A stretch of 64,000 bases of DNA from an uncultured Clostridia bacterium (lineage in GTDB: Bacteria > Bacillota > Clostridia > Oscillospirales > CAG-272), in the NCBI GenBank assembly GCA_944391805.1, contig CALXUY010000081.1, positions 5,914 to 69,913 on the forward strand, written 5' to 3'. Both the position numbers and the translations under genes were made by a program. Below are positions 1,869 to 61,712 of this stretch, in pieces. Below the pieces are notes generated by a model that did no database searches, was not told the origin of the DNA, and saw nothing but the letters and a program-made list of their open reading frames with translations. Position 1 is the first letter of the stretch, and every line of letters starts with the position of its first letter.

Positions 1869-1958
1869 AACACGGGCACTTCGCGGAATTGCGACCGCAG
1901 GAAACTTCTGAAAGAAATTTCCCAGTGCCCTCTCAAAACACTTCAAAAGAAAGACATG

Positions 1959-1995: not shown

Positions 1996-1998
1996 TGA

Positions 1999-8687: not shown

Positions 8688-8714
8688 CATCATCCTTTCA
8701 TTTTCAGATATCGG

Positions 8715-9010
8715 AGCTGCGGCAAACAGCATCAAAAAAACCGCCCTCCGTTCGGAACAGAGGGCGGAAAACCTTCCGCGGTACCACCTCAATTCGCCAC
8801 TTCCTCACGGAAATGACCTCGGCAAGCACGGCACATTTCTGCGCTTATGCTCATTCCGCGATAACGGGCGAACCCGGTGAAAGCCTACTCCAAATTTCAG
8901 CCCACAGCTCTCGGGATGTATTCACACAGGCGGCGGCTTACCGTTTTGCACCCACCAACGGCTCTCTGAAAACCTCACGCACCCGGTTACTTCTTCCCGG
9001 TCATGGCCAT
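8715..9010 (-). promoter_or_regulatory. T-box riboswitch leader (tRNA-sensing transcription attenuator)
   Basis: On the minus strand the canonical T-box sequence AAUUGAGGUGGUACCGCG lies at about 8777-8795. It is immediately followed by the terminator CCGCCCUCUGUUCCGAACGGAGGGCGG plus U7. Stem I elements are present: the AG-bay AGAGAG (about 8962-8967) and the distal loop GGUGCAAA. A candidate specifier context GAA-UAC-A places UAC at 8918-8920. Confidence 0.8.
8734..8767 (-). terminator. T-box attenuator terminator hairpin
   Basis: CCGCCCTC pairs with GAGGGCGG (10-11 bp stem) and is followed by TTTTTTT on the minus strand. Its 5' arm can alternatively pair with the T-box sequence as an antiterminator. 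Confidence 0.8.
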
Positions 9011-9017
9011 TGCCGAT

Positions 9018-22587: not shown

Positions 22588-22634
22588 ATCAGCTCCTCCT
22601 TTCCTGAAATGTTCAGATAAGATGCGGTATGGAA

Positions 22635-24266: not shown

Positions 24267-24469
24267 TCGACAGATGCTTCCCACGTGATATCGTCCATTG
24301 CATCCGGATCCTCGTTCCGGTTCTCCCGGTTCAGATTTACCACCGTCAGCCAGATCAGAACCGCCAGCAGCAGGCACAGCAGCCGCGTGATGATCCGGGT
24401 CCGGCGGAGCCATCCGCCAACCCCCTCCTTCGGGGCGGTCATGCGCCCGATGATATTTTTCTTTTTCAT
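24263..24469 (-). CDS. 68 aa single-pass membrane protein resembling only the N-terminal anchor of CdaR/YbbR
   Basis: The sequence is MKKKNIIGRMTAPKEGVGGWLRRTRIITRLLCLLLAVLIWLTVVNLNRENRNEDPD.... A basic stretch, a transmembrane helix and a V-N motif resemble the CdaR N-terminus. The gene sits where cdaR normally follows cdaA. No YbbR domain is present. Confidence 0.45.
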   Translation of the reverse strand: MKKKNIIGRMTAPKEGVGGWLRRTRIITRLLCLLLAVLIWLTVVNLNRENRNEDPDAMDDITWEASVE

Positions 24470-24647
24470 GTTCCGTCACCCCCGAGCTCATTCATTGAAA
24501 ATCACGCGGCCGCACATTCATAAGCGCCGCTGCGGGTACAAGCCTCGCTTCCCTCCGGATTACACCGTTCCGCAGACCGACAGGTGAAACCGGCATTCCC
24601 GCCGCCGGACGGCTTCCGCATCTCAAGCGCCGCAGCAATGCGGCGTC

Positions 24648-44329: not shown

Positions 44330-44341
44330 TGCAATCCCCCC

Positions 44342-44923
44342 TCACAGGTAAAGCTCCAGCCTGCGCTGGCTTTTGGCATCCAGCTTGCTCACATCGGGAA
44401 TTTCAAACCGGTTGCCGTTGACGTCCGAAAACACAATGCGTCCCGCATCCACCCGCTGGATGCTCCGATAGGTGTCGTGCAGGGTAAACCGCACCTCCCC
44501 CTCCGGCGTCTGCACCTTCCAGTAGGAGAAGCCATACCGTTCCTTGACCGACAGGATGCGCAGAACCTCCGGCGCGTAATAGCGCCTGCGCAGCTCATTC
44601 TCGAGCAGCTCGCGGGTCTCCCCTGCAAACAGCCCGGTGCTGCGGATGATGCCAAGCTCGCGGTGCTCCTCATCCAGCACAGAGATGTACTCCCACAGGC
44701 AGTCAAACGGGAACTCCCTGCAGAGAATGACCCTTGTCTCCTTGCCGTCCAGTGTAAGCCACAGCAGGCCGTTCCGGCTTGAAAACACCGCGTTTTCAGG
44801 TGTAAGCCACACCGTTTTGGAAATTTCGTCGAGCGAGCGCGCGGGAGCTCCGTGCTTTTCCCCGTCTCTCTCCCGACTCTCCCGTCTTCCCGGCCCCGGC
44901 CGGCCATGCATAAAATCGTCCAT
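44342..44923 (-). CDS. DUF1854 domain protein (ABC-transporter-associated)
   Basis: The C-terminal 150 aa (VWLTPENAVFSSRNGLLWLTLDGKE...RYGFSYWKVQTPEGEVRFTL...DVNGNRFEIPDVSKLDAKSQRRLELYL) matches the DUF1854 pattern. The family is typically sandwiched between two ABC exporter genes. Confidence 0.8.
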   Translation of the reverse strand: MDDFMHGRPGPGRRESRERDGEKHGAPARSLDEISKTVWLTPENAVFSSRNGLLWLTLDGKETRVILCREFPFDCLWEYISVLDEEHRELGIIRSTGLFAGETRELLENELRRRYYAPEVLRILSVKERYGFSYWKVQTPEGEVRFTLHDTYRSIQRVDAGRIVFSDVNGNRFEIPDVSKLDAKSQRRLELYL

Positions 44924-44944
44924 TCGCTTCCCCGCCTTTCCCCA

Positions 44945-47179
44945 TCACTCCACAATGCCTGCGCTCCGCAGCGCCTCCATTTGCAGCGTGAACAGTTTTT
45001 TGTAAATCCCGTCCTCTTTTTGCAGCAGCTCCCGATGCGTTCCGCACTCGGCCACCCTGCCGTGCTCAATCACCACCAGCGCGTCGGCATCCCGCAGAGT
45101 GGAAAGCCTGTGCGCGATCATAATCGTGGTTTTCCCCTCGATGAGCCTGGCCAGCGCCTCCTGAATCCTGCGCTCGGTTCCGGTGTCCATCGCGGCGGTT
45201 GCCTCATCCAGAATCAGAATTTTGGGATTTTTGAGGATGGCGCGCGCAATTGAGAGGCGCTGCCGCTCTCCGCCCGAAAGATCCTGATAGCCAAAGCCGA
45301 TGCGGGTGTGATAAGCGTCCGGCAGCTTCATGATGAATTCATGCGCGCCGGCGCAGCGGGAGGCCTCAATCACCTCCTCATAACTCGCGTCGGGGCGGGC
45401 ATACCGGATGTTATCCAGAATGGTACCCATGAACAGGTAGGTTTCCTGCGAAACAATGGCGATGTTCTGATAGAGCGAGGAGAAGGCCAGCTCGCGCACC
45501 GGAATGCCCCCCACGCGGATCTCTCCCTCCTCCGCGTCGTAGAGCCGCATCAGGAGATTGGCCAGCGTGCTCTTTCCCGCGCCCGTATGCCCGACAATGC
45601 CCAGCACCCCTCCCTCGGGTACCGAAAAGCTGACATGGTCGATAACGCGCTTGCCCTTGATGTAGGAGAAGGACACGTTGTCAAATTCCACGCTGCCTCC
45701 GAGCACCTCCGGGCGAACCGGATGCTCCGGCTCACAGACGTCTGGCTGCGCGTCCATGATTTCAAACAGGCGCTGCATGGCGTTGGTGCAGTCGGCGCTG
45801 CGGTTCATCATATCCGAGAAAAAATGCAGCGGGGAGTAGATCATGCCCACGTAAGCGATAAAGGTCATCAGCATTCCGTATGTCAGCCCACCGTAGCCGG
45901 TGATGACCATCCAGCCGCCCACCGCCCACGAGATGATTGTGCCCAGATACAGCACCACGCCCGAGATATGCCCAGCATAGTTGTGAAACAGCGAGAGCTT
46001 TCGGTCGCTCTCGGCCAGTGTTTCGCTGCGGACGGTAAAGCGGTCGATCTCCTGCTGCTCCCGCGAAAAGGCCTTGACCACCCGCATCCCCGAGAGCACG
46101 TCGGAGAGCAGCGAGTTGAGCTGACGCGAGCCGGAAAAACGGCGGGCATGCAGCTTTTTCTCGTTGCGGTACACCCAGCGCATCATGAAGAAAAACACCG
46201 GAACCGTGATCAGGGTCAGCAGCGCCAAGAGGGGCTGAATCACCGCCATGAGCACCGTGAGCACAACGACCTGCACGATGTTGACGATCAGATACGGCAG
46301 CCCGTCGCAGAAGAACTCGTAAATGGTGTTGGCGTCCTCGTTGACCTGTGTCATCAGGCCGCCGGTCTGCCGCCCGGAAAAGAAGCTGAGCGACAGCCGC
46401 TCGATCGAATGGAAGATGGTTTTTTTCAGCTCATACACCATTTTGGCAGCCACCGACGAGGTAATCCAGTTGTTGACCATGGTCGCCAGCATTTTGAGCA
46501 GGCGGGTGGCGATCACAAGCCCCAGCACCAGCAGAATCTCTCCGTAAAACGGTCCGGCTCCGTCAATGACCTCGTCATAAAAGAAGCCCTTGGAGAAATA
46601 GGGGGTGAGAATGCTCATGGCGGTGAGCACCACCAGCGACACCAGAATCAGCACCAGGCTGACCTTGTATTTGGCAAAAAAGCCTGCCATACGGCGGAAC
46701 AGCTTTCCCTTTTCCATACAATGCGGGCAGATCCTTCGGTTGAGGTCGGGATACGGCATCCCGCATTTGGGGCAGCATTTGGAGGAGGGCAGATCCTTGG
46801 GATCCGGCTCGATCGGCTCCCCCTGCGCCAGCCTTTTGAGGTACTTGACAAACAGCAGAACCGATTCCTTGCAGAAATTGGTAAACGACGCCAAAAGAAC
46901 AGTATCCTCCCGGAAGCGTGCGAGCAGCCGCCCGGTGGAGCGCTGTTCCTCCACCGCGATGTTGCTCAGCTCCCGCAAAGGGTACTGTTCCAACGGACGC
47001 GACTCCCGATCCAGCACATAAAGGCTCTGAAGATCGGCGAGCAAAAAAACTTCCCCCGGCTCCTGCTCCCGGGTGCGGTCGCATCGTGCCGCCAGCTGCG
47101 GTGCGATGCCGGCTTCTTTGATTTTGTCGGTCACCCATGTAGGGATTCTGTCTATTTCCAGCATGAAGCTCCTCCGCAT
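44945..47179 (-). CDS. ABC exporter (permease-ATPase) with an N-terminal PH-like domain plus zinc-ribbon extension; first gene of the ABC-DUF1854-ABC operon
   Basis: The preferred start is MRRSF at 47179, 5 nt after a GGGAGG SD. Codons upstream of it in this frame are almost exclusively GAA/CAA/CCA (A-ending), unlike the rest of the gene. A zinc ribbon (CCPKCGMPYPDLNRRICPHCMEKG) lies before TM1. Nucleotide-binding domain motifs are GHTGAGKST, LSGGERQR and ILILDEATA. Confidence 0.8.
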   Translation of the reverse strand: MRRSFMLEIDRIPTWVTDKIKEAGIAPQLAARCDRTREQEPGEVFLLADLQSLYVLDRESRPLEQYPLRELSNIAVEEQRSTGRLLARFREDTVLLASFTNFCKESVLLFVKYLKRLAQGEPIEPDPKDLPSSKCCPKCGMPYPDLNRRICPHCMEKGKLFRRMAGFFAKYKVSLVLILVSLVVLTAMSILTPYFSKGFFYDEVIDGAGPFYGEILLVLGLVIATRLLKMLATMVNNWITSSVAAKMVYELKKTIFHSIERLSLSFFSGRQTGGLMTQVNEDANTIYEFFCDGLPYLIVNIVQVVVLTVLMAVIQPLLALLTLITVPVFFFMMRWVYRNEKKLHARRFSGSRQLNSLLSDVLSGMRVVKAFSREQQEIDRFTVRSETLAESDRKLSLFHNYAGHISGVVLYLGTIISWAVGGWMVITGYGGLTYGMLMTFIAYVGMIYSPLHFFSDMMNRSADCTNAMQRLFEIMDAQPDVCEPEHPVRPEVLGGSVEFDNVSFSYIKGKRVIDHVSFSVPEGGVLGIVGHTGAGKSTLANLLMRLYDAEEGEIRVGGIPVRELAFSSLYQNIAIVSQETYLFMGTILDNIRYARPDASYEEVIEASRCAGAHEFIMKLPDAYHTRIGFGYQDLSGGERQRLSIARAILKNPKILILDEATAAMDTGTERRIQEALARLIEGKTTIMIAHRLSTLRDADALVVIEHGRVAECGTHRELLQKEDGIYKKLFTLQMEALRSAGIVE

Positions 47180-47214
47180 ATGTACCTCCCGCCGAAACGG
47201 GAGCCGCCGGGCAA

Positions 47215-47385
47215 TCAGTCGCAGCGGTTTTTCTGGTTGTTGTTCTTGTTCTGGTTCTGGTTGTTCTGGTTCTGGTTGTTCTGGTTCTGATTGTTGTTCT
47301 GGTTTTGGTTCTGGTTGTTCTGGTTCTGGTTTTTGTTCTGATTGTTCTGGTTCTGGTTGTTGTTCTGATTCTGGTTGTTCTGCAT
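47215..47385 (-). CDS. Candidate 56 aa Asn/Gln-repeat small ORF (MQNNQNQNNNQ...KNRCD) upstream of the ABC operon
   Basis: The ATG at 47385 lies 9 nt after a strong AAGGAG SD (47400-47395). The frame uses CAG/AAC (G/C-ending) codons, as does the rest of the genome. It ends at the TGA at 47217-47215, 35 nt before the ABC start. It falls below the 60 aa cut-off of the ORF track. Confidence 0.35.
   Translation of the reverse strand: MQNNQNQNNNQNQNNQNKNQNQNNQNQNQNNNQNQNNQNQNNQNQNKNNNQKNRCD
47228..47380 (-). repeat. Hexanucleotide tandem repeat (AACCAG)n with variants, about 25 units
   Basis: The plus strand reads CTGGTT CTGGTT GTT CTGGTT... throughout. The repeat generates open frames on both strands (PEPEQ, NQ and TR frames; GSGCSG and LVLV on the plus strand). 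Confidence 0.85.
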
Positions 47386-47462
47386 AACTGTATACTCCTT
47401 TTTCTTGAAATCCCATTGGGATTTTGGATTTCAGCATTCAGTATGCACCGAATCAGGCCGGA

Positions 47463-48860
47463 TTATACATGCGGCTTGACAGGACAGCAGGTGGTCATTT
47501 CCTCCGATAGCTGCGTAAGGAAGCCGGCAAAGCAGAGCGAGGCAATAAAGGAAAGCACAAACTGCACCATCCACATCCAGCCATAGGTTTGCTGCAGGAA
47601 AATTTCGCAAATTTTGGCAGCAAGAGAAAGCGCCAGAAACACCCATACCGGAATGGTTCTCTTATGCAGCCGCAAGGCTGACAGCTCTGCCGACCACTCC
47701 GAGCCGGCCGGCCGCTGCGCCGCATACGCCAAGGCATACCGGCCGGCCATTGCCGCGAGCGCACGAACCACGAGCAAAACAAATACCACCAGCAGAATCG
47801 CCTCCAGCACGCTCAGGATCTGCACCGTCAGATACTGCTGATAGGCATTCGGCAGATAAAGCGCGTCTCTTGGGACAAACTCCTTGAGATAGCGCATATT
47901 GAGCGCGCTTCTGGCAGTTCCCACACCGATCAGGAGCAGACCGGCGGCCACACATGGGAGACGCTTTTCGACAAGCCCGCCCAGCATGAGCAGTCCACAG
48001 AAAAACAGCAACGCGCAGAACCAATCCGGCAGAACCGAATAATACATCAGGGACAGGTTGATGAAGAATACGCTGCCGACCCGAAAAAAGGTGAGCGCCG
48101 CGTTCATACGGCGGTGGAGCAGCAGGCCCGAATTGGAGAGCACCTCCTCCTCATACTCCCGGCAGAGCTGCTCTCTCCATGGCGTGTCGGATGCGGCAAG
48201 CCGCATAAAGCGGAGGTAGCGCACCAGCCAGATCACCCCAATCACACCGGAGATCACCGCGGCACCCGTCCGCAGCGGATTGGCATAGGAAAACCAATCA
48301 AATGAAAAGAAGGGATTGCCGTCGTCATACTCAAACGAGGTCAGCACGGTCAGCTCGGGCAGAAGCGTGAGCAGTGAGTGCAGGACAACAAATCTCCCGG
48401 AGGCCTTTGCCATCCGCTCGCACCATGTCCTTCCCCGTTTTTCCCGAAGCAAAACGGTTCCGCCGTGGAATTGCGCCAGAGCAGACAGGCCGCTGAAAAA
48501 CCGGCGCCACGCAGGCAGGAGATAATACCACTGAAAAACCAGCAGCACAAAGCTGAACAGAAGCACCCACATCGGCTGCTCATACTGATTGAGGGATTCG
48601 GAGGATTTCCGGAGCACCACATCCACCAAAAGCTCGGCAAGAATCTGCCCCAGCCCCACCCAGAGCATGGCGCGAAAGGCTTTTTGCGAATCCAGTAGCT
48701 GCTCGCTCCTGTCCAGATCCGCCAGCCTGGAAAGCCCCAGTAGCAACAGCAGATACCCAATGGCATCCGGCAAAATATCCATCACGCCGAGCACCGGATT
48801 CCAAAGGAAACAGCCGGCGGCAACCAGAAGCCCAAACCCCAGTTTCCGATTGCTTAACAT
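47463..48860 (-). CDS. Multi-pass membrane protein of unknown function
   Basis: The start MLSNRKLGFGLL at 48860 lies after an AAAGGAG SD. At least 10 hydrophobic segments are predicted. No family was recognised. Confidence 0.6.
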   Translation of the reverse strand: MLSNRKLGFGLLVAAGCFLWNPVLGVMDILPDAIGYLLLLLGLSRLADLDRSEQLLDSQKAFRAMLWVGLGQILAELLVDVVLRKSSESLNQYEQPMWVLLFSFVLLVFQWYYLLPAWRRFFSGLSALAQFHGGTVLLREKRGRTWCERMAKASGRFVVLHSLLTLLPELTVLTSFEYDDGNPFFSFDWFSYANPLRTGAAVISGVIGVIWLVRYLRFMRLAASDTPWREQLCREYEEEVLSNSGLLLHRRMNAALTFFRVGSVFFINLSLMYYSVLPDWFCALLFFCGLLMLGGLVEKRLPCVAAGLLLIGVGTARSALNMRYLKEFVPRDALYLPNAYQQYLTVQILSVLEAILLVVFVLLVVRALAAMAGRYALAYAAQRPAGSEWSAELSALRLHKRTIPVWVFLALSLAAKICEIFLQQTYGWMWMVQFVLSFIASLCFAGFLTQLSEEMTTCCPVKPHV

Positions 48861-49100
48861 CGTTTCTCCTTTCTGCGAAAGAGGCGGCCCGGCCTCCCTC
48901 TTCGGGAAGGCCGCGTGCGGCGCTCTCCGCAAGCGTTGTTGTCTGTACCGGGCAATATGATTCCCGGAACTCCGGCGGCCTGCCGCTCCGCATTCCCTGC
49001 AGAGGTACGGCGCATCACCAAGCCGCCGACAGGATCCGTGAACGCGTCCGGATATTGCCCTTTCCGCCGCCCGACACCGTGCGCAGGCCGCGGCCGATGA

Positions 49101-49829
49101 TTATCGTTTCTTTTTTTTCTTTCGCTGCTCGCGCTTTTCCTGCCGTTTTTTCAGGTAATTTTCGATTTCCTCGCGGTTGCTGTCGGCCGCCTTTTTCATG
49201 TTTCCCGAAAAGGTGTCGCCGATGCGGTTGAGCACGTTCCACCGGTAACGCTTGGGCTGCGGCTCCTCCTGCCCCGCGGGACAGATGTTCTTCGCGCAGG
49301 ACAGCAGCAGCAGCAGGTTGCAGACAATCCATACCAGGTTGAGCAGGTTAAGCGAAAAATTGAAATACACCCGCACACCGTCCCATGCCGGAATGGGCAG
49401 GCTGTACAGCACATACACCACACCGTACACCAATAAAATCACGGCATTCCGCACAGCGGCGGCCGAAATGCAATTCAGCTCCACCCGCATTCCAAGCTCC
49501 CGGATGGCCGAGAGGAGCGCCGCATGGAACAGCATAATGAGCAAAAACTCCACCCATGCCATGACGGTCTCCGCGCCGTGCGGCAGGAAGCTCCACAGGA
49601 AAATCTGCGAAAGATCCTCCAGCGCACGCCAGACCGCCGTAAGCAACAGCGCACAGGTCACTCCCCCGGCCCACAAAAAGGAACGGCAGTAATCCTTGAG
49701 CCGCCACAAGCCGAACAGCATCAGCCCGTACCCGACCAGCAGAGCCAGAGAACCGAGGTGCAGCGCACTTGCGGTCAGCTTGAGTACAAATGTGACGAGA
49801 TAGCCGAGCAACAGGTAGCCGAATCCCAT
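49101..49829 (-). CDS. Multi-pass membrane protein of unknown function with a Lys/Arg/Glu-rich C-terminal tail
   Basis: 242 aa with about 6 hydrophobic segments. The tail is KKAADSNREEIENYLKKRQEKREQRKKKKKR. The gene starts 30 nt after the secA stop. Confidence 0.55.
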   Translation of the reverse strand: MGFGYLLLGYLVTFVLKLTASALHLGSLALLVGYGLMLFGLWRLKDYCRSFLWAGGVTCALLLTAVWRALEDLSQIFLWSFLPHGAETVMAWVEFLLIMLFHAALLSAIRELGMRVELNCISAAAVRNAVILLVYGVVYVLYSLPIPAWDGVRVYFNFSLNLLNLVWIVCNLLLLLSCAKNICPAGQEEPQPKRYRWNVLNRIGDTFSGNMKKAADSNREEIENYLKKRQEKREQRKKKKKR

Positions 49830-52838: not shown

Positions 52839-53336
52839 ATGAACCGCATTCACATCGTTCTCCATGAGCCGGAAATTCCGCAGAACACCGGCAATATTGC
52901 CCGCACCTGCGCCGCCACAGGCGCGTCTCTGCACCTGATCCGTCCGCTCGGCTTCGCGATTGACGACAGAAAGCTCAAGCGCGCGGGGCTGGACTACTGG
53001 CACCAGCTTGACATCTCCTATTACGACGGCATGGATGACTTTTTTGCGCAGCACCCGGCGGCCGATTTTTATTGCTTTTCCACCAAGGCCAAGCAACGGT
53101 ATACCGATATTTCCTATCCCTCCGAGGTCTATCTGATGTTCGGCAAGGAGACGCGGGGACTGCCCGAGGAATTTCTGCACGCGCATCCCGACCGCTGTGT
53201 ACGCATCCCGATGCGGGAGGGGCTGCGCTCACTCAATCTCTCCAATTCGGCGGCGATTGCCGTGTACGAGGTTCTCCGCCAGCATGATTTTGCCGGGCTG
53301 AAGACTACAGGCGAGCTGACGCGTTTTGAATGGTAA
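52839..53336 (+). CDS. trmL: tRNA (cytidine/uridine-2'-O-)-methyltransferase TrmL (SpoU/TrmH family)
   Basis: The ORF starts MNRIHIVLHEPEIPQNTGNIARTCAATGASLHLIRPLGF and has the C-terminal knot motifs LNLSNSAAIAVYE. Confidence 0.85.
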   Translation: MNRIHIVLHEPEIPQNTGNIARTCAATGASLHLIRPLGFAIDDRKLKRAGLDYWHQLDISYYDGMDDFFAQHPAADFYCFSTKAKQRYTDISYPSEVYLMFGKETRGLPEEFLHAHPDRCVRIPMREGLRSLNLSNSAAIAVYEVLRQHDFAGLKTTGELTRFEW

Positions 53337-53465
53337 AATTTACGGGGAAAAGAAAAAAGGCCTTGAAAGGAGAAACACCTTTTGAAAGAGACGCCCTCCC
53401 TCCAAGCCTTCCTCCCCCCCAAGAATTTTCCACAATGCCGTTCTGTTTTTTCGCCCTGCTACTGA

Positions 53466-53510
53466 GGCGGCTCCGGAAACCGATGGTTTCCGGAGCCGCC
53501 TCGCTTTTGT
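53466..53510. terminator. Intrinsic terminator hairpin between convergent trmL and the ybaK-like gene
   Basis: GGCGGCTCCGGAAACC-GAT-GGTTTCCGGAGCCGCC (16 bp perfect stem) followed by TCGCTTTTGTT on the plus strand. Confidence 0.6.
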
Positions 53511-53992
53511 TACTCCCGTGTTTCCTGCCACCCGCGGCAGACATCCACCCAGCCCGCGGCATGGGAAAGCCGCTCCAGCTCCTCCGGCGTCAGCCTGACC
53601 GCGCTGTGGTCGCTGCCCGCTGCGGGATAAACAATCGGGAACCGCCGCAGGGAAACGTCAAGATAAACGCGGACACCTGTGTGAATGACAAACGGGCAAA
53701 CCCCGCCCGGCGCATGTCCGATGAAATGCTCCACCTCGTCCGCGGGGATCATTTTCGCCTTTGTTCGAAAGGTTTCTCTGTACTTTTGATTGTCCACACG
53801 CGCGTCACCGGCAACCACAATCAGGAGCGCACATCCGTCCGCAAGAAAGGACAGGGTTTTGGCAATCTGCCGCGTCTCGCATCCGATGGCCTCGGCAGCC
53901 TCCCCAACGGTTGCGCTGGAATGCTCCAGCAGCATCAGGCGGTCGCCCAGACCCGCATGTTCAAAATAGCCTTTGACGCTCTCATACGACAT
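53510..53992 (-). CDS. YbaK/EbsC-family aminoacyl-tRNA editing (deacylase) domain protein
   Basis: 160 aa. The TVGEAAEAIGCETRQIAKTLSF...GDARVDNQKY... pattern is typical of the YbaK/ProX family. The gene starts 18 nt after the helicase stop. Confidence 0.7.
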   Translation of the reverse strand: MSYESVKGYFEHAGLGDRLMLLEHSSATVGEAAEAIGCETRQIAKTLSFLADGCALLIVVAGDARVDNQKYRETFRTKAKMIPADEVEHFIGHAPGGVCPFVIHTGVRVYLDVSLRRFPIVYPAAGSDHSAVRLTPEELERLSHAAGWVDVCRGWQETRE

Positions 53993-54010
53993 GGCATCGG
54001 TTCTCCTTTT

Positions 54011-56245
54011 TCATGAGTATTCATCGGATATTTCCAGAATCCGCTTCCCTGCCTCGGTTCCGTTGAGCTTGTCCACCGCATAGGCATGGCGGAGCAGGTC
54101 GGCCGGGATATCATCGTCATACTTTTCAAACACCGGAATTTCGGCGCTGCCCACCAGCGCCCCGGTGTCAATCCCCTCCTGCGCCTGCTCCGCCAGCGCG
54201 GAGATCAGGTCGGCATCGCTCCCCCCTGACATTTTGAAGCTGATGAAATAGCAGCCCTCGTACTCCACACCCGTGATGCCGAAGCGCTTGGCCTGTGCCT
54301 GAATCAGGCGGCGTACCGTGCGAAAGGAACGGGTGCCCAGCCAGGGGAACAGGCACCATGAGTATCCGCCGAGATGCACCAGCGAGTGCTCCAGCATGCC
54401 GGTATTGCGCGCCACATGCCGCGCCACCTCCAGCCGCTTCTGTGCGTTGGGCTTGAGATAGGGGTAGACGGTATCCTCGGAGAGCACCTGCTTCATGCGC
54501 TCGGCAATGCGGGTGTGCACCTCGCCGAAGTCGCCCGGCCAAGAGACCTCCATCTTTCCTTCCACGCTCTTGACATAAATCAGCTTGCGCTGAATATCCA
54601 GCTCCTCCACCTCCCACACACGTCCGGCCAGTGCGAACCGGTCTCCCACCGGAGGCGGCGTGGTGATGGTGCCGATCTCGTCCGAGCCGCAGCGCACCGT
54701 GTAATCCTCGGAATCCTTGAACACCGCGTAAAATTTGAAGCTGCGCAGCAGCCGCTCGCCGGCCAGCCCCACAATCAGGGTTTTCTCCTCGGTCATCTCG
54801 AGAAAATCGTTGTTGAGCATCGAGAGCAGCAGCACCTTGTAGTCCTCCCGCGGCACACCGCCGAACGGAGGGAGGGCCAGCACCCGCTCGGCCAGCCGCC
54901 GCGCGGTCAGCTCCCCGGAGGCGGCCAGCACGCTCAGCGTCTGGTGAAACAGCAGGCTGAAGGGCAGCCTGCGCCAGGTGGGCGGCTCGATGAAGCGCTC
55001 CTCGCGGTAAAGCTGCACAATGGCAATGGCCTTGAGCAGCTCCCACGGGATCAGATGGGGCAGCGGCGTGTTGGGCAGCGGATCCTCCTCGCGGAACACC
55101 ATCATCATCTCCGGGGGCTGCCCTCGCCGCCCCGAGCGTCCCATACGCTGCAGAAAGCTCATGACCGAGTTTGGGGACTGATTCTGCAGCACCCGCTCCA
55201 GCCGGCCGATGTCGATTCCCAGCTCCATGGTCACGGTGGCGCAGGTGACGGCCAGCGTGTCCTCCTCCTTCATCTTCAGCTCCGCCTCCTCACGGATCGA
55301 GGCCGAAAGATTGCCGTGGTGAATCAGGAACACATCCGGGTCTCCCCGGACACGCGCGATCTGGCGAAAGGTGGCGCACACATATTCGGTCTCCTCCCTG
55401 GAGTTGGAAAACACCAGGGATTTTTTGTCGTGTACGCAGTCGTACATAAAGGAATACCCGGCGTCAAAGGTCGCGGCCGGCGGCGCCGGCTCGGTCTGCT
55501 CCTTCGGCTCCTTTGCCTGATCCTCACGGGTGTTCTGCACATAAAAGTGTTCCATGCCCAGACGCCAGCGCAGCCGCCCCTCCTCAAAGCGCGGGATGTC
55601 GGTCTCCCTGCCCGAGCCGGCGCTCAGCCATGCGGCGGCCTGGGGCGGGTCTCCGATGGTAGCCGAGAGCCCGACGCGGCGGGGCTGCCGGCCGATGAGC
55701 CGCCCGATGCGGGAGAGCTGGCAGAGAATCTGGTTGCCGCGGTCACTGCCGGTCAGGGTATGGATTTCATCCAGCACCACATAGCGCAAGTCTCCGAACA
55801 GACGCACCAGATCATTGTTCCGGTTGATGAGCATGGCTTCGAGCGACTCCGGCGTGATCTGCAGAATGCCGCGCGGCCGCTCGAGCAGCTTTTTCTTGTG
55901 GGACCCGGCCACATCGCCGTGCCAATGCGTGACCGGAATGCCGCTTTGCTCCAGCAGCTCCTCAATGCGGTAAAACTGATCGTTGATCAGGCTTTTGAGC
56001 GGAGCGATATACAGCGCGCCCACGCTCTGGGGCGGGTTCTCCCAAAGCTCGGTCAGAATCGGGAAGAAGGCGGCCTCGGTCTTGCCGCTGGCGGTGGAGG
56101 AGCAAAGCAGCAGATTGTGGTCGGTATTGAACAAGGTTTCGGCCGCCGCCACCTGCACGGCGCGCAGCGACTCCCAGCCGCGCGAATAGATGAACTCCCG
56201 GATAAACTCCGGGAAACGGTCAAATACGGACGTTCCCTGCGGCAT
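54011..56245 (-). CDS. Lhr/BrxHI-like DEAD/DEAH-box superfamily 2 helicase (Shango SngC-like)
   Basis: 744 aa. Motif I is SSTASGKTEAAFFP and motif II is VVLDEIHTL. Motif VI is QRMGRSGRRG. A long C-terminal Lhr-type associated domain follows. The SD GGAGGGAG precedes the ATG at 56245. Confidence 0.85.
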   Translation of the reverse strand: MPQGTSVFDRFPEFIREFIYSRGWESLRAVQVAAAETLFNTDHNLLLCSSTASGKTEAAFFPILTELWENPPQSVGALYIAPLKSLINDQFYRIEELLEQSGIPVTHWHGDVAGSHKKKLLERPRGILQITPESLEAMLINRNNDLVRLFGDLRYVVLDEIHTLTGSDRGNQILCQLSRIGRLIGRQPRRVGLSATIGDPPQAAAWLSAGSGRETDIPRFEEGRLRWRLGMEHFYVQNTREDQAKEPKEQTEPAPPAATFDAGYSFMYDCVHDKKSLVFSNSREETEYVCATFRQIARVRGDPDVFLIHHGNLSASIREEAELKMKEEDTLAVTCATVTMELGIDIGRLERVLQNQSPNSVMSFLQRMGRSGRRGQPPEMMMVFREEDPLPNTPLPHLIPWELLKAIAIVQLYREERFIEPPTWRRLPFSLLFHQTLSVLAASGELTARRLAERVLALPPFGGVPREDYKVLLLSMLNNDFLEMTEEKTLIVGLAGERLLRSFKFYAVFKDSEDYTVRCGSDEIGTITTPPPVGDRFALAGRVWEVEELDIQRKLIYVKSVEGKMEVSWPGDFGEVHTRIAERMKQVLSEDTVYPYLKPNAQKRLEVARHVARNTGMLEHSLVHLGGYSWCLFPWLGTRSFRTVRRLIQAQAKRFGITGVEYEGCYFISFKMSGGSDADLISALAEQAQEGIDTGALVGSAEIPVFEKYDDDIPADLLRHAYAVDKLNGTEAGKRILEISDEYS

Positions 56246-56265
56246 TTCCGCTCCCTCCCTTCGGT

Positions 56266-57738
56266 TCAGATATCGATTTCATCCGGCGAATACATCCGCC
56301 GTCCGGCGTTCTCCCGCGCCCCGCCGGAGGCAGGATCGGATTGCCGCCCCGACGGCCCTTCCTCTCCCGCCGCGGCTGTGCCCCGATGCGCTTCACCCCG
56401 CGAGTGGTCTGCCTCATCGTCCTCAACCGGCCGGAGCGTCACCGCGCTGCCCACCACCTGCTCAAAGGTGGCGTCGGGATTCTGCATCAGAATGTTGAGC
56501 ACGGTCATATAGTCCCGCAGCATCTCGCGCGGGGTGATCATGCTGTCGGCTCCGGCACGACTCAAGCAGATCTGCAGAAACTGCGCCATCTGCTCGGGCG
56601 AGAGATCGGGGGCGCTCCCGTAATTCTGCGCGTACAGACGGGTGACCCGGGTGATCAGCGCAAACAGCTCGTCGTCCGAAAGCCTGCGCAGGCGGATCAC
56701 CGGTCCGATCAGATTTTTGAACCCGTCCAGCGCAAACCGGCTGTCACAGAGCCGGCTGCGCAGCGCCTCATAGCTGAACAGCCCGCGCCGGGTGTCCTCA
56801 AGAAACTGCGGCGTGCCCCCCAGAATCAGCGCCAGCCCCGGCGCCCGCCCCTGCAGGGTGTCGTTGAACATGGCGAGAATTTTCTCATAGTTGTTCTCCC
56901 GGCTGACCCGGTGGGAAATTTTGTAGAGGTTGACGCACTCGTCGATGAACACCACCAGCCCGCGGTACCCCATCGTGCGCGCCGCGGCGGCCCAGAGCTT
57001 GAGAAAATCGTACCAGTTCTCATCGTCGATGATGACCGATACCGCAAAGCCAAGCTCCTGCCTTGCCTCGGTTTTGGTGGAAAATTCCCCGCGCAGCCAG
57101 CGCAGGCAGGCGCTCTTGCGCAGGTCGTCCCCATCGGTGTATGCCCGGTAGTAGGCGGTCACCACGTGCGCAAAATCAAAGCCGCCCACCAGAAACTCCA
57201 GCTCCTGCAGCGCGGAGAGCACCCGGCGGTTCAGCTCGGCGGCAAACCGCTCCCCCTCGGCGGGGACGCCGTCCGACACAATGGCCGCCTGCAGCCCGGT
57301 GATCCAGCGGGCGAGAATTTTGGGCAGCGCGCCGCCGTCCGGCGAGGATTTGGAGGCGAGATTTTTCATCAGCTCGCGGTAGGTGGCCACACCGCTGCCC
57401 CCGCTGCCGTACAGCCTGCGCTCGGGCGAGAGATCGGCGTCCGCCGTCAGAAAGCCGCGCTCCAGCGCATACCCGCGGATGAGCTGCATCAGAAAGCTCT
57501 TTCCGCTGCCGTACCGCCCGATGAGAAAGCGCATCGAGCCTCCCCCCTCGTTGACCGTTTCGAGATCCGAGAGCAGCGCGGCAATTTCGTCGGTGCGCCC
57601 GATGGCAAGATAGGGCGCGCCCGCGCGTGGGACCACCCCGGCAGAGACCGAGGCGAGCAGGGATGTCAGGATCCGCTTCGGAACCTTGGGAATTTCGTTC
57701 TGATCGGTTTGTTCCATCAAAATGCAGTCTCCTTTCAT
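56266..57738 (-). CDS. DUF2791/BrxD-like P-loop ATPase (Shango SngB-like)
   Basis: Walker A GRYGSGKSFL and Walker B-like VVFIDE. The N-terminal segment VVPRAGAPYLAIGRTDEI is typical of DUF2791. The ATG at 57738 overlaps the upstream stop as ATGA. Alternative starts at 57720 or 57717 lie downstream of an internal AAAGGAG. Confidence 0.8.
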   Translation of the reverse strand: MKGDCILMEQTDQNEIPKVPKRILTSLLASVSAGVVPRAGAPYLAIGRTDEIAALLSDLETVNEGGGSMRFLIGRYGSGKSFLMQLIRGYALERGFLTADADLSPERRLYGSGGSGVATYRELMKNLASKSSPDGGALPKILARWITGLQAAIVSDGVPAEGERFAAELNRRVLSALQELEFLVGGFDFAHVVTAYYRAYTDGDDLRKSACLRWLRGEFSTKTEARQELGFAVSVIIDDENWYDFLKLWAAAARTMGYRGLVVFIDECVNLYKISHRVSRENNYEKILAMFNDTLQGRAPGLALILGGTPQFLEDTRRGLFSYEALRSRLCDSRFALDGFKNLIGPVIRLRRLSDDELFALITRVTRLYAQNYGSAPDLSPEQMAQFLQICLSRAGADSMITPREMLRDYMTVLNILMQNPDATFEQVVGSAVTLRPVEDDEADHSRGEAHRGTAAAGEEGPSGRQSDPASGGARENAGRRMYSPDEIDI

Positions 57739-59951
57739 GGGACGGACGGGCTCCACCCGTCCAGCAGATGGCGGTATTCTTCAAGCACGCGGTAGCCGTC
57801 GCCGACGTCCTCCAGCAGGATGTCGCCGGTCCGGTCGGCCGCCAGCTCATTGATCTCATCCGCCACCGCGTCGGGCAGCCTGCCCAGTTTGGCAGCCTCC
57901 GAACGCTGCGCGCCGGAATCCTCGCGCAGCACCGCCTCCAGAAACGCGCGGTACAGAGACAGGGCATCACACAGCCCGGCTTCGGGCATGGTCTGCGACC
58001 CCTGCGGTGGGGACGCCTCCGGTGTGGAAGCCTTCCGTACAGACACCTCCGGGGAAACGGCACGGTCCGGCACACCCGTCACAGACGGCGTGACCATGCT
58101 GGACACCGGCCCGTGTACGGCTTCCGGAGCGGTTTCCGGAACGGTTTCCGACGCAGATGCCGAACCGGGCACGGACTCCTCCCTGCCGGGCGCGCCGGCA
58201 GTCCCCGCCCCTGTCATGGGGGGCACCTGCGATGCGGACGATGGCTCGGCCTGCCGTTCCCCCTCCTCCGCAAACGCCTCCACCAGCTTCTGCGTGGTGT
58301 TCCACGACAGGCGCTCAATATCGGCGGCGTTGGAGAAGCTCAGGGGCGTTTCCGGCAAATCGTAGAGACGCTCGTATGCCGGTATTTCCTGTTTTCTGTT
58401 TGCGGTTTGCTTTGCCGGGAGCAGCTCTGCGACGGCCGCGTCGATGCGTTCCCGCAGCCTGACCGGCAGCGCATAAATGGTGAGCCTCGAGCGCACGCCG
58501 AGCCAGGCGCGGAGCTTGTTTTCGGTATACTTGACAATATCGGTGATGAGAAAGCGCAGCTCGTGCGAGCGCGAGAAGGAGCAATAGGAAATTTCGATCT
58601 TTCGCTTGACGCGCCAGGAGCAGAGCGCCCCGGAGTAGGCATCCCGGGTCAGGCGGCTGTCATCCATTCCGGAAGCCGAAAACAGCCTGCCCGATTCGCT
58701 GAGCAGCTCTGTCGCCTGCCGGAGCACCGCCGCCACGGTACGGTCAAACAGCTCCCAGTTCTCTGGGGTGCAGAATTTGCTCTTTCTGTAATCGTAATTG
58801 CAGCAAAAGGCGAGCAGCACCTGTACATAGCCGTCCGCTGCACCGCCGCTCACATAAAACTCCCTGAGCGCGCAATGCTGCATGATCTGTGCCAGCAGCT
58901 CACCGCCCAGGCAGGCGGGCGAGGACAGATGGTGTACCAGACTGTAGTCGCAGATCCACTCGGGCAGATAGTTGTCAAGCTGCCGGAAGCGCTCCCGATA
59001 GCCGGACCAGATGCCGCAGAGCAGCTCCTGCCCCCTGTCCGGGGAAATGCGGTCGGACAGATTGAGGATTTCATAAACCAGCAGCAGCACATAGCTGTAG
59101 TCGGTATCCGGAAAGCTGCCCTCCCGGATGCACTCCCGGAGATGCAGATACCATGCAAGCTGTTGGGGGTTCATCTGCGAATACTGCGGAACGTAGGAAA
59201 AAAACGGGACGCGCTCACATCGCTGCCCGCATTCCCCGAGCAGCTTTTCGGCCGTTCTGACAAACTCCTCATAATACGGATACCGGCTTTTCCAGCGGAA
59301 AATGCGCACCCGGTGAATCAACGCGCTGTCAGGGACGTATTCATCGTCGGGCTGTGGCGCGTTCGCCGCGTCCTCGGCCGTGTGCGGATACACATACCCG
59401 TGAATGACCGGCTGCCCGCCGGAGGCCGAAACCGTGTGGACAACGGTGCGGGCCGCCCGCGGTGCAGGCTGCTCCTGCGATCCGGGAGCCACCGGCATAT
59501 CCCGCGGCACAGGTGAACCGGCAGATGCGGGAGGCACCGGCGGTACAGGAGGCACCGACGGTACAGGAGGCACCGGCGGTACAGGAGGCATCGGTGGTAC
59601 GGGAGGTACGGGCGGTACCGATGGCGCCGCCGATTCTGAGCGGGCGGCCGCTCCTTTTGGGCGCGGCCGAGAAGTCCGCCCGGACATGCCGGAATGCCCG
59701 CCCGGAACCGGCGCAACCCGTGCTGTCGGATCGGAGATTCTGTCCGGTGCCGGAATCGGCGCCGGATGCACAATATCCTCATCCTCCTGTCCGGAGCCAG
59801 GCAGAGGCTCCAGTACGATTTCCGTCGTGTCGGTATGCTCACTCCGCCTCACCGGACGCCTGGGCGGAAGCAGCGCGTCAATATCCCAGAACCGGTCCAG
59901 CTCTTCTTCCCTTCTCTGCCGGTCTGTCTGCTTCGGTTCGATCTCTCCCAC
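57735..59951 (-). CDS. TerB-N plus TerB-C domain protein with a Pro-rich repeat linker (Shango SngA-like)
   Basis: TerB-N-like core: FFSYVPQYSQMNPQQLAWYLHLRECIREGSFPDTDYSYVLLLVYEILN. TerB-C-like end: LPDAVADEINELAADRTGDILLEDVGDGYRVLEEY. The start is uncertain: GTG 59951, GTG 59852 and GTG 59771 are candidates. The first 20 codons of the tracked ORF are actually the promoter. Confidence 0.7.
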   Translation of the reverse strand: MGEIEPKQTDRQRREEELDRFWDIDALLPPRRPVRRSEHTDTTEIVLEPLPGSGQEDEDIVHPAPIPAPDRISDPTARVAPVPGGHSGMSGRTSRPRPKGAAARSESAAPSVPPVPPVPPMPPVPPVPPVPSVPPVPPVPPASAGSPVPRDMPVAPGSQEQPAPRAARTVVHTVSASGGQPVIHGYVYPHTAEDAANAPQPDDEYVPDSALIHRVRIFRWKSRYPYYEEFVRTAEKLLGECGQRCERVPFFSYVPQYSQMNPQQLAWYLHLRECIREGSFPDTDYSYVLLLVYEILNLSDRISPDRGQELLCGIWSGYRERFRQLDNYLPEWICDYSLVHHLSSPACLGGELLAQIMQHCALREFYVSGGAADGYVQVLLAFCCNYDYRKSKFCTPENWELFDRTVAAVLRQATELLSESGRLFSASGMDDSRLTRDAYSGALCSWRVKRKIEISYCSFSRSHELRFLITDIVKYTENKLRAWLGVRSRLTIYALPVRLRERIDAAVAELLPAKQTANRKQEIPAYERLYDLPETPLSFSNAADIERLSWNTTQKLVEAFAEEGERQAEPSSASQVPPMTGAGTAGAPGREESVPGSASASETVPETAPEAVHGPVSSMVTPSVTGVPDRAVSPEVSVRKASTPEASPPQGSQTMPEAGLCDALSLYRAFLEAVLREDSGAQRSEAAKLGRLPDAVADEINELAADRTGDILLEDVGDGYRVLEEYRHLLDGWSPSVP
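59529..59625 (-). repeat. In-frame 18 nt tandem repeat encoding (PPVPPV)n in the TerB-N/C protein
   Basis: The plus strand shows about 5 copies of GGAGGCACCGGCGGTACA with variants. It translates on the minus strand as VPPVPPVPPMPPVPPVPPVPSVPPVPPVPP. Confidence 0.85.
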
Positions 59952-59982
59952 CCCCCTTCCGGTTATGCTCTCCGAATATTTT

Positions 59983-60011
59983 ATTATACCATGTATCCGG
60001 CTGCTTGTCAA
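59983..60011 (-). promoter_or_regulatory. Consensus extended -10 promoter of the three-gene TerB/ATPase/helicase operon
   Basis: On the minus strand: TTGACA (60011-60006), exactly 17 nt, then TGgTATAAT (-10 at 59988-59983). Confidence 0.65.
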
Positions 60012-60020
60012 TCGGTTTTT

Positions 60021-60071
60021 GGAAAAAACAGTCCGCCCCAGACCCGTTGATCCTCTGCGGGCCTGAGGCGG
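60021..60071 (-). terminator. Intrinsic terminator of the kdgK-eda operon, insulating it from the downstream operon
   Basis: On the minus strand: CCGCCTCAGGCCCG, an 11 nt loop, then CGGGTCTGGGGCGG, followed by ACTGTTTTTTCC. Confidence 0.65.
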
Positions 60072-60099
60072 AGCATATGTATGAAGTCCGATCGGTGAA

Positions 60100-61119
60100 T
60101 CAGCGCTGCACCCTGCCGTTGGCGCTGCCGTTTGCCAGCGACAGCACCTCCCTGGCGGAGAGCGGACTGCTGTCCCCCTCCACCGAGTGCTTCAGACAAC
60201 TGGCAGCCGCTGCGAAGGATACGGCCTCCTGCGTGGAAAAGCCCTCGCGCAGCGCATAGATCAGCCCGGCGGCAAAGGCGTCCCCTCCGCCGATGCGGTC
60301 GACGATGTCCATCCGGTACTTCACCGATGTGCAGAGCGCTTCCCCATCATAGAGCTTGGCGCAGAAGCTGTTGTCCTCGGCCGAAAAGGTTCTGCGCTCC
60401 GCAATGGCGACATACCGCAGACCGTGGTTCTTTTGCAGCTCATGAGCGAGAAAGAGATAGCCGCGGTCGGTGACGTCATCCCCGTTGATTTCGGTCTGCG
60501 GAATCCGGATATCCATCAGATCGGCAGCCTGATTCTCGTTGGTGATGAGCACATCCACATAGGGGAGAATGCGCCGCATATATGCCGCAGCATCCGAGAG
60601 GCTCCAGAGCTTGGCGCGATAGTTGGGATCAAACGAGACGGTCAGCCCCTTCTCCTTTGCCGTCCGGCAGGCAGACAGGCAGATGTCCGCCAGCTCCGGG
60701 CTGAGTGCGGGAGTGATACCGGTGAGGTGAAACCAATCCGCCCCCGCAAACACGGCCGGCCAATCAAACTCCCCGGCAGAGGCCTGCGCAATGGCCGAAT
60801 GCGCGCGATCGTACACTACGTTGGAGGGGCGCTGCGAGGCGCCGCGTTCCAGATAATACACCCCCAGGCGCTCGCCGCCGCGCACGATATTCCCGGTTTG
60901 CACTCCCCAGCGCCGCAGGCTGTTGAGCGCCGCCTGCCCCAGGTCGTTCGCCGGCAGCTTGCTGACAAACTCGGCCTGCGTACCGAGGCAGCAAAGAGAC
61001 ACCGCCACGTTCGCCTCGGCGCCGCCGTAGGCGGCCTCAAAGGACTCTGCCTGCACCAGCTTCCGGTAGCCCGGCGGGGTCAGGCGAAGCATCAGCTCTC
61101 CAAACGTCACCACTCTCAT
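60100..61119 (-). CDS. kdgK: 2-dehydro-3-deoxygluconokinase (PfkB family sugar kinase)
   Basis: 339 aa. PfkB motifs are GGAEANVAV near the N-terminus and DRIGGGDAFAAGLIY near the C-terminus. The start overlaps the eda stop as ATGA. Confidence 0.85.
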   Translation of the reverse strand: MRVVTFGELMLRLTPPGYRKLVQAESFEAAYGGAEANVAVSLCCLGTQAEFVSKLPANDLGQAALNSLRRWGVQTGNIVRGGERLGVYYLERGASQRPSNVVYDRAHSAIAQASAGEFDWPAVFAGADWFHLTGITPALSPELADICLSACRTAKEKGLTVSFDPNYRAKLWSLSDAAAYMRRILPYVDVLITNENQAADLMDIRIPQTEINGDDVTDRGYLFLAHELQKNHGLRYVAIAERRTFSAEDNSFCAKLYDGEALCTSVKYRMDIVDRIGGGDAFAAGLIYALREGFSTQEAVSFAAAASCLKHSVEGDSSPLSAREVLSLANGSANGRVQR

Positions 61120-61712
61120 TTCAGTACCTCCAGAATCCGGCGGCAGTTCTGCCGGATATCGCCCTTCATCATAAAGCTGCCTCCCACCGCCGCAATGCAG
61201 CCACAGTCCAGAAATTCACGCAGATTGTCAAAATCCACGCCGCCCGTGGGCAAAAACCGGACCTGCGGAAAGGGTGCGGACAGCGCCTTGATGGCGGCAA
61301 GCCCCCCGTAAACATTGGCCGGGAAAAACTTGACCGTGGTAATGCCGAGGCCGATGGCCTGCATGATTTCGGTCGGCGTCGCACACCCCGGCAAATAAAG
61401 CACGCCGGCCTGCCGGGCGATTTCGGCCACCTCCGCGGAAAGCCCGGGCGATACGAGGAAGGCGGCACCGGCTTCGAGCGCTTGCTGCGCCTGCGCAGCG
61501 TTGATAACGGTTCCCGCTCCGATGTACATTCTGGGAAAATGCCTGACTCCCAGCCGGATGGCCTCGGCGGCGCATGGGGTGCGGAAGGTGATTTCCGCAG
61601 CGGGAATGCCCCCCTCCTCGAGCGCCTGCAGGGTTGGGATCGTATCCTCCGGATTGCGGATGACCACCACGGGCAAAACCCGGATCGTCTCCGGCAGCGA
61701 TGATTGGTTCAT
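61116..61712 (-). CDS. eda: KHG/KDPG aldolase (2-dehydro-3-deoxy-phosphogluconate aldolase)
   Basis: 198 aa with EITFRTPCAAEAI, GAGTV and KFFPA motifs typical of Eda. Confidence 0.85.
   Translation of the reverse strand: MNQSSLPETIRVLPVVVIRNPEDTIPTLQALEEGGIPAAEITFRTPCAAEAIRLGVRHFPRMYIGAGTVINAAQAQQALEAGAAFLVSPGLSAEVAEIARQAGVLYLPGCATPTEIMQAIGLGITTVKFFPANVYGGLAAIKALSAPFPQVRFLPTGGVDFDNLREFLDCGCIAAVGGSFMMKGDIRQNCRRILEVLK

Follow-up and report, generated by a model that had tools for sequence, protein, structure and literature searches.

The DNA analysed here, called the window throughout, is a stretch of 64,000 nucleotides (nt) from contig CALXUY010000081.1 of an uncultured Clostridia bacterium. 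Its minus strand carries three adjacent and co-oriented genes, sngA, sngB and sngC, in the order A-B-C, which very probably constitute a Shango defence system. Shango, reported by Millman et al. (2022) and by Johnson et al. (2023), combines a TerB-like protein, an ATPase and a helicase, and the E. coli and P. aeruginosa PA14 homologs confer protection from phages; the PA14 system is located in cDHS1 (Johnson et al. 2023) and guarded liquid cultures across a wide phage-dose range. An earlier note on this DNA had reported three tightly packed genes, and both junctions that it gave are present: the stop codon of sngA and the start codon of sngB share an ATGA (4-nt overlap, ccATGAaagg), and exactly 20 nt, with the ribosome-binding site GGGAGGGAG in them, lie between sngB and sngC. 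In the mechanical list of open reading frames (ORFs), the genes correspond to the minus-strand frames 54011-56245, 56266-57738/57756 and 57735-60011, the last of which would start sngA at a TTG at 60011. This TTG is the -35 box and lies within the promoter described below; the real start is the GTG at 59951, because the N-terminal alignment is conserved (the first 30 residues of a SngA of 738 amino acids (aa) align with its homologs) and public gene calls give 738 aa as well.

The best PADLOC match of each protein is the corresponding Shango model (SngA 7.1e-50, SngB 1e-164, SngC 3.4e-242). The SngC match spans aa 7-729 and positions 5-710 of 720 of the hidden Markov model (HMM), and the SngA match runs from aa 230 to aa 753 of the 758-aa ORF (HMM positions 69-526 of 528). 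The second-best models were BrxD for SngB (1.4e-49) and BrxHI for SngC (8.8e-124, over aa 7-652). With the Sng models on top for all three proteins and the canonical order and orientation kept, the identification as Shango (SngABC) given in the earlier note is upheld. Most of the Pfam domains that it had named were found as well: TerB_N (3e-15) and TerB_C (7.5e-6) in SngA, BrxC_BrxD (PF10923, formerly DUF2791; 5.5e-157) in SngB, and DEAD and Helicase_C in SngC; DEAD_assoc gave no match to SngC at E<0.01. The TerB_C match is marginal, at 26.7 bits barely over the cut-off of 26.3 bits; the same domain matches 66 of 67 SngA homologs, at best with 2.7e-11. The original TerB-N/TerB-C prediction is reportedly that of Anantharaman and colleagues in 2012, which Millman and colleagues cite. 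All catalytic motifs of SngB and SngC are intact, including the Walker A GRYGSGKS (aa 74) and the DEIH box (aa 159) already read in the earlier note, the SngB Walker B VVFIDE (aa 262) and the SngC motifs SAT (aa 194) and QRMGRSGR (aa 366).

A scan of metagenome contigs with SngC yielded 79 further loci at 60-83% identity, most of which carry sngA-sngB-sngC; the A-B-C order recurs in those that have all three genes and also on plasmids. The operon is not always compact, because unrelated genes stand between sngB and sngC in two of these loci, one for a GH39-like protein (442 aa; L111, 8625-9953) and one for a polysaccharide deacetylase (232 aa; L113, 9306-10004). At a third locus, L106, an unannotated interval of ~2 kilobases (kb) lies at the same place (about 1653-3663).

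The earlier note had also placed a consensus promoter right behind the terminator of the upstream gene kdgK, and both elements are there (Table 1). The site TTGACA-17-TATAAT with its TG extension is the sole 12/12 site in the 8.5 kb from 53000 to 61500, for which 1.9 would be expected by chance, and it begins twelve bases past the kdgK terminator, whose predicted fold (-31.9 kcal/mol, z = -5.0) was equalled by 0 of 200 shuffled sequences. An equivalent promoter scoring 11-12/12 was present 90-165 nt upstream of the conserved N-terminal SngA motif in all 21 related loci that contain the SngA N-terminus and at least 260 nt of upstream sequence. These promoters read TTGACA-17-TA(T/A/G)AAT, with the TG extension in 20 of the 21; in the control, 8 of 400 random windows of the same loci scored 11 or more. 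Such conservation is good evidence that the predicted promoter is functional and belongs to the cassette. The description of the operon as insulated holds on the upstream side; it does not on the downstream side, where we found neither a terminator-like nor a promoter-like site between sngC and the following ybaK-like gene. Of 69 relatives, only 29 show a recognisable terminator straight after sngC, and the window locus has none there, so that read-through from Shango into the downstream gene seems common among relatives. An Rfam scan detected no RNA element in the operon.

Table 1. Coordinates of the features discussed in the text (positions refer to the record named in the second column).
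Feature	Record	Position	Strand	Details
sngA	window	57735-59951	-	738 aa; GTG start at 59951 after GGAAGGGGG; TerB_N/TerB_C protein
sngB	window	56266-57738	-	490 aa; BrxD-type ORC/Cdc6-like AAA+ ATPase; start overlaps sngA stop
sngC	window	54011-56245	-	744 aa; superfamily 2 (SF2) DEIH helicase, BrxHI/Lhr-like group
Predicted Shango promoter	window	59983-60011	-	TTGACA-17-TGnTATAAT (extended -10); score 12/12
Intrinsic terminator of the upstream eda-kdgK unit	window	60023-60072	-	stem of 15 base pairs (bp) (about 60072-60032), then GUUUUUU
YbaK/EbsC-family tRNA_edit gene (ybaK)	window	53510-53992	-	Pfam tRNA_edit 5e-25; 18 nt downstream of sngC
GC-rich hairpin between convergent ybaK and trmL	window	53463-53503		19 bp; canonical trmL terminator (+); no U-tract (-)
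SngA conserved N-terminal motif	window	59859-59912	-	EELDRFWDIDALLPPRR; aa 14-31; predicted helical
SngA linker 1	window	59397-59816	-	aa 46-185; disordered, Pro/Val/Ala-rich, 27% Pro; predicted local distance difference test (pLDDT) <50
(PPV)n repeat in linker 1	window	59530-59618	-	18-nt unit x 4.9 (tandem repeat search)
SngA ordered core including the TerB_N match	window	58257-59396	-	aa 186-565; pLDDT mostly >90
SngA linker 2	window	57987-58256	-	aa 566-655; disordered, Ser/Pro/Ala-rich; pLDDT about 35
SngA TerB_C domain	window	57738-57986	-	aa 656-738; helix-helix-helix-strand-strand; pLDDT 93-97
Spurious antisense ORF	window	59404-60066	+	over the 5' part of sngA; equivalents in L088-L092
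Orphan SngC-like gene	L135	9998-12286		
Orphan SngC-like gene	L137	9998-12286		
Orphan SngC-like gene	L157	9875-12325		
Orphan SngC-like gene	L173	9977-12199		
Orphan SngC-like genes	L136, L147, L159, L164, L165			

The cassette stands between eda, kdgK, a gene for a NAD-binding protein, a Rrf2 regulator gene and a phosphoribosyl pyrophosphate (PRPP) synthetase gene on one side and ybaK, trmL, secA, two conserved genes without assigned function and ABC transporter genes on the other. RelA/SpoT, RecJ and MurJ-like genes lie further off, and the other annotated genes of the window are housekeeping genes. The GC content of the operon (0.634, vs 0.575 in the rest of the window) falls inside the range of the host genes, in line with the host-like GC content estimated by eye in the earlier note, and its codon usage correlates with that of host genes at r = 0.93-0.97. 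The tested flanking genes are housekeeping genes, with no mobile-element genes among them, again as had been noted. This context had been called unusual for a defence system; the operon is indeed alone among housekeeping genes, but such a setting is normal for its clade of gut and rumen relatives. Standing alone among core genes is the usual state there, because the related loci lie in differing, mostly housekeeping neighbourhoods (YchF, Obg, a two-component system, aconitase, PanE, MatE, a Na/Pi transporter), with exceptions such as one locus beside a type I restriction-modification specificity (S) subunit gene and another near a nucleotidyltransferase/HTH gene. No recurrent family of neighbouring genes, including downstream of sngC, was found among these loci. 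An AP-endonuclease-2/xylose-isomerase-like gene 3' of sngC (L102, L104) was examined as a candidate nuclease effector and rejected: it occurs only in a small group of close relatives, and in L103 it lies on the opposite strand. Defence systems of gut Clostridia can sit alone among core genes under a conserved promoter of their own, where searches based on defence islands would miss them.

Exact-protein look-ups in contigs of the same species from many samples showed that all those spanning the junctions carry eda-kdgK-sngABC-ybaK-trmL-secA with about 100% identity. A sister species (SecA 96.7% and YbaK 86% identical) has sngABC at the same site, upstream of ybaK. In relatives with a SecA 90, 88 and 85% identical, trmL-secA and the genes that follow secA are conserved; on the far side of trmL this site holds unrelated genes, no ybaK and no Shango. 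The earlier note had suggested a comparison of synteny for variable presence of the triad, and presence does vary: the triad is at this site in two species and absent there in the next relatives. Synteny with these relatives (L192/L194/L195) breaks exactly past trmL, at about 53336-53510 of the window, and the genes beyond differ in each (GH20/lipase, glycogen phosphorylase, MutS2-like), which marks a recurrent rearrangement boundary. Named SecA relatives at 79-83% identity carry labels of Ruminococcaceae or Clostridia metagenome-assembled genomes. A GTDB synteny search through kdgK gave 80 loci, none with Shango, ybaK, trmL or secA nearby; because the best relatives were only about 55% identical, it is no test of the empty site, and SecA was used instead.

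Beyond this clade, the family is evidently mobile: 690 plasmid records, most of them of conjugative plasmids from Klebsiella and Salmonella, contain a SngB homolog, and none of 50,697 phage records contains a SngB-related gene. Two annotated plasmid triads (TerB_N / ATP-binding / DEAD-box) were inspected, one of which lies by relaxase/IS110 genes and the other by HipA/ParB genes. Two independent samples of the sister species (L182 nt 625, L183 nt 584) share one GAG-to-TAG nonsense mutation in the helicase domain of sngC, at about codon 350, and the gene is intact in L180, L181 and L184. A loss-of-function allele that segregates in this way is more in keeping with an accessory defence gene than with an essential housekeeping one. 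A further apparent disruption of sngC, in L096, is a run of scaffold Ns and was discarded as an assembly artefact. Finally, at about a dozen loci a SngC-like helicase, 60-70% identical, has no sngA or sngB within 10 kb and sits by genes for a RlmI-like rRNA methyltransferase, a sigma factor, ArgRS or rpoB/C-sized proteins. In a rough neighbour-joining tree, read without the long branches L108 and L115 (probably wrong-frame ORF picks), these orphans are nested among the Shango-linked helicases.

These distribution data bear directly on a first alternative, namely that the triad is a housekeeping module for DNA repair or replication restart, made of a Lhr/MrfA-like helicase and accessory factors, which only resembles Shango. 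The fixation of a 100% identical triad in same-species contigs, its retention at the same site in the sister species, its host-like codon usage and its housekeeping neighbours without mobile-element genes would all suit such a module, as would the orphan SngC-like genes beside core genes and the resemblance of SngC to the repair helicases YprA/MrfA and Lhr, its closest relatives of solved structure. However, the Sng models far outscore any other model for each protein, the triad is absent from the syntenic site in near relatives and otherwise scattered in location, the sister species harbours a nonsense allele of sngC beside intact ones, members of the family are frequent on conjugative plasmids, and homologs are experimentally anti-phage. 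SngA moreover evolves at a rate, given below, that would be unusual for a repair factor. We consider a housekeeping function quite improbable.

The ybaK-like gene follows sngC after an 18-nt gap, as the earlier note had stated, and has its own AAAGGAGA site ahead of its start. The co-transcription suggested in that note is judged probable: from the arrangement of the predicted signals, transcription that starts at the Shango promoter probably continues into ybaK. The hairpin beyond it is primarily the trmL terminator, because its T-run lies on the plus strand. It could be asked whether sngABC and ybaK make up one functional unit, in which the tRNA-deacylase-like protein takes part in defence, since the gap is short and free of any detected terminator or promoter and the adjacency is kept in the sister species. 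Yet a ybaK-like gene within 10 kb is missing at all 79 related loci (as are trmL, secA and kdgK), and the genes downstream of sngC show no recurring family. Homologs of ybaK with 66-67% identity are found elsewhere as single genes, and PADLOC has no match for the YbaK-like protein. Participation of ybaK in defence is accordingly highly improbable; we rejected it as a fourth Shango component and regard it as a lineage-specific neighbour, adjacent to Shango only here and in the sister species.

The three subunits differ strongly in their rate of change. In comparison with the window, strains L196 and L197 have 89-93% identity in SngA, 99.2-99.5% in SngB, 98.9% in SngC and 99% in KdgK. For the sister species, the identities are 62% (SngA), 89% (SngB), 94% (SngC) and 97% (SecA), with non-synonymous divergence (dN) of 0.29, 0.07 and 0.03, synonymous divergence (dS) of 0.77, 0.34 and 0.34 and dN/dS of 0.375, 0.21 and 0.10 for SngA, SngB and SngC, respectively. 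Among the 79 related loci, the best segments are 28-60% (SngA), 37-85% (SngB) and 60-83% (SngC) identical. SngA is therefore the fast-evolving subunit at strain, species and family depth, and in the sister-species comparison it evolves 4-8 times faster than its partners. The doubled dS of sngA suggests either that a divergent allele has replaced the resident one or that the substitution rate is raised locally. Differences between strains cluster in linker 1 of SngA, and the window allele is longer by 18 aa (3 repeat units) than those of L196 and L197. Several metagenome contigs (L086, L087, L093, L094) end within a few hundred bases of the 18-nt repeat.

The anatomy of SngA was derived from alignments of 17 and 67 homologs and from an AlphaFold2 model (mean pLDDT 73). 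The protein begins with a conserved motif of consensus EELDRFWDIDALLPxRR, in which F21, W22 and L27 are invariant in the 67 homologs; the model places a helix at aa 6-27 (pLDDT 75-85). Linker 1, expanded to about 140 aa in the window protein, separates this helix from the ordered core, and linker 2, of variable length among homologs, precedes the TerB_C domain, whose Pfam match spans aa 669-730. Public gene calls often shorten SngA to 587 aa and place a spurious antisense ORF of 244 aa over the proline-rich 5' portion of the gene; because of this truncation, the N-terminal motif is missing from database records such as P0001 and P0002. The 587-aa calls and a longer SngA (at least 782 aa) in L096 were set aside as gene-calling differences, the sequence being the same. 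Sequence searches of the PDB returned nothing for SngA or SngB, and a Foldseek search of the SngA model against the PDB gave no significant relative (best E = 0.2). Its sole recurring matches were winged-helix DNA-binding domains of ~70 residues (E 0.7-2, probability 0.7-0.87); these weak matches probably fall on TerB_C, a placement that we infer, as the output gives no coordinates.

This anatomy is relevant to a second alternative, abortive infection through membrane surveillance, according to which SngA sits at the membrane, detects damage of the envelope by phages and triggers a shutdown of the cell. Membrane surveillance has been proposed in the literature for the TerB-containing systems Bunzi and Shango. 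A SngA encoded on the Aeromonas hydrophila plasmid pMAH4 (L199, 4575-6974, 799 aa) is indeed strongly hydrophobic over aa 4-60 (Kyte-Doolittle 19-residue maximum 2.69), a segment likely to be a membrane anchor. In the window, on the contrary, SngA, SngB and SngC have no transmembrane-like stretch (Kyte-Doolittle maximum <=1.35), and the conserved N-terminal helix of SngA is acidic and a poor candidate for membrane binding. The TerB domain proper (PF05099) was matched at E<=0.1 by none of the 67 clade SngA homologs, the window protein included, which have TerB_N and TerB_C only; no pore-forming or lytic effector is encoded, and PA14 Shango protected liquid cultures at widely differing phage doses, which speaks against a purely abortive mode. 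Membrane surveillance is thus quite unlikely at this locus, and the label of TerB protein, with the surveillance idea built on it, does not apply to the SngA of this clade. The N-terminal motif is missing from the SngA proteins encoded on plasmids of C. estertheticum and Aeromonas; the SngA N-terminus looks like an exchangeable module, because the Aeromonas protein has a hydrophobic anchor and no FWDIDALLP.

The earlier note held the mechanism of Shango to be unknown, which agrees with the literature: a search of one literature library up to 2026 found no mechanistic paper on Shango, and according to a 2025 preprint it is still unclear what TerB-type proteins do. We propose that SngC would act as the motor, an ATP-driven SF2 DNA helicase or translocase, and that SngB, as an ORC/Cdc6-type AAA+ ATPase, may load or switch on SngC on invading DNA. 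The loader role is proposed because the homologous BrxD, encoded beside BrxHI, forms with it a dyad for which helicase loading has been proposed (PMC12839542). SngA, translationally coupled to SngB, would be a soluble specificity or regulatory subunit that gates the SngB-SngC motor; it might respond to a cue from the phage or be what phage inhibitors attack, and would bear the brunt of phage counter-evolution. Its N-terminal helix would be tethered to the core through the long, length-polymorphic proline-rich linker, and TerB_C may be winged-helix-like. No nuclease or toxin is recognisable among the three encoded proteins; because no nuclease is encoded, interference might consist in unwinding, in stripping proteins off phage DNA or in exposing it to host nucleases. 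Judging by analogy with PA14 and its protection in liquid over a wide dose range, direct interference would fit better than altruistic suicide. This division of labour between loader, helicase and sensor is a tentative proposal that may well prove wrong.

The same components could act on any incoming DNA, since an ORC-like AAA+ ATPase and a DNA helicase would not be restricted to phages. A third alternative is therefore that the system mainly excludes plasmids or other mobile DNA, by interference of the helicase with their replication or establishment, and the occurrence of related genes on hundreds of plasmids vs none in 50,697 phage records would agree with it. The published phenotypes, however, are anti-phage, and nothing at the locus separates the two kinds of target; we regard exclusion of plasmids as the main function as unlikely.

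Taken together, a complete and intact Shango cassette with its own promoter and with the loader, helicase and sensor mechanism outlined above is the best explanation overall, and in our judgement a reasonably probable one. A role in phage resistance gains indirect support from the patchy distribution, the nonsense allele and the fast evolution of SngA. Several points weigh against the explanation. The published phage resistance is that of the E. coli and P. aeruginosa homologs, and as no effector nuclease or toxin is recognisable, how phages would be killed or blocked is conjecture. A domesticated or housekeeping role would likewise be compatible with fixation within the species, codon usage like that of the host and the absence of mobile-element genes. 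The likeness of TerB_C to a winged helix rests on non-significant Foldseek matches whose aligned residues are not visible. As for SngA, its doubled dS may mean replacement by a divergent allele and not an arms race, and its overall dN/dS of 0.375 is still below 1.

A broader and more doubtful reading, which we offer as a speculation, is that in this clade of gut and rumen Clostridia Shango is a long-resident cassette with its own promoter and not a hopping island, that specificity lies entirely in SngA, and that the orphan SngC-like genes are motors kept for host DNA after loss of sngA and sngB. In this long-resident cassette, a soluble SngA would hold out its conserved FWDIDALLP helix at the end of a proline-rich tether whose length varies; point changes, growth of the repeat and perhaps the replacement of alleles would diversify SngA, with the SngB-SngC motor staying nearly constant. 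If specificity does lie in SngA only, swaps of sngA alleles would reprogram the phage range and give a handle on the Shango trigger. More generally, Shango is widespread, and this locus with its relatives offers a clean natural comparison that points specificity experiments at SngA and its N-terminal helix.

Some other features of the window were recorded in passing. Downstream of secA, the minus-strand genes 47463-48932 and 49101-49829 (489 aa and 242 aa) have no NCBIfam match; their counterparts in public records are without Pfam match and keep their position in every relative examined. The adjoining region 42167-47437 (-) encodes an ABC exporter, a DUF1854 protein and a second ABC exporter, a set like the transporters associated with cyanophycin metabolism, below the NCBIfam cut-offs. 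The sole Rfam match is a T-box leader (RF00230, 108.5 bits) at 8757-9013 (-), upstream of a 567-aa gene at 7089-8792. A 652-aa ORF at 22629-24587 (+) has no Pfam match and an unusually high GC content at the second codon position (0.52); it may be of low complexity or a mis-called frame.

Comparison with known systems places the locus as follows. With the Ter tellurite-resistance cluster it has in common only the TerB_N/TerB_C accessory domains, and these by name: PF05099 is absent from the 67 SngA homologs and no terZABCDE genes occur at the locus. Lhr and YprA(MrfA) are the nearest solved structures to the SngC core (6znp 4e-28, 5v9x 7e-27), with a similarity limited to the motor domains, about aa 8-384. 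Unlike in YprA(MrfA), there is no MrfB-like exonuclease partner beside SngC; as to Lhr, DEAD_assoc is not reported for SngC, and it is the BrxHI profile that aligns up to aa 652, BrxHI being described with a winged helix, a beta-barrel and an Lhr-like C-terminal domain (PMC12839542). Like BrxD-BrxHI of type 2 BREX/Pgl, SngB and SngC form a tightly linked couple of ATPase and helicase, but the Sng models score much higher, the annotated neighbours include no PglX, PglZ, PglW or BrxC, and SngA is the partner instead. The closest counterpart is Shango itself (Millman et al. 2022; Johnson et al. 2023), which has the same three proteins in the same order, with PADLOC matches over almost the whole of all three Sng models. 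The window cassette differs from known Shango in lying in the chromosomal core of an uncultured gut Clostridia bacterium and not in a defence hotspot or on a plasmid, and its SngA, only ~20% identical to the plasmid SngA proteins examined, has features of its own: the clade-specific FWDIDALLP helix, two long disordered linkers and no membrane segment. It is an ordinary further copy of an already described family, and it leaves what Shango is unchanged.

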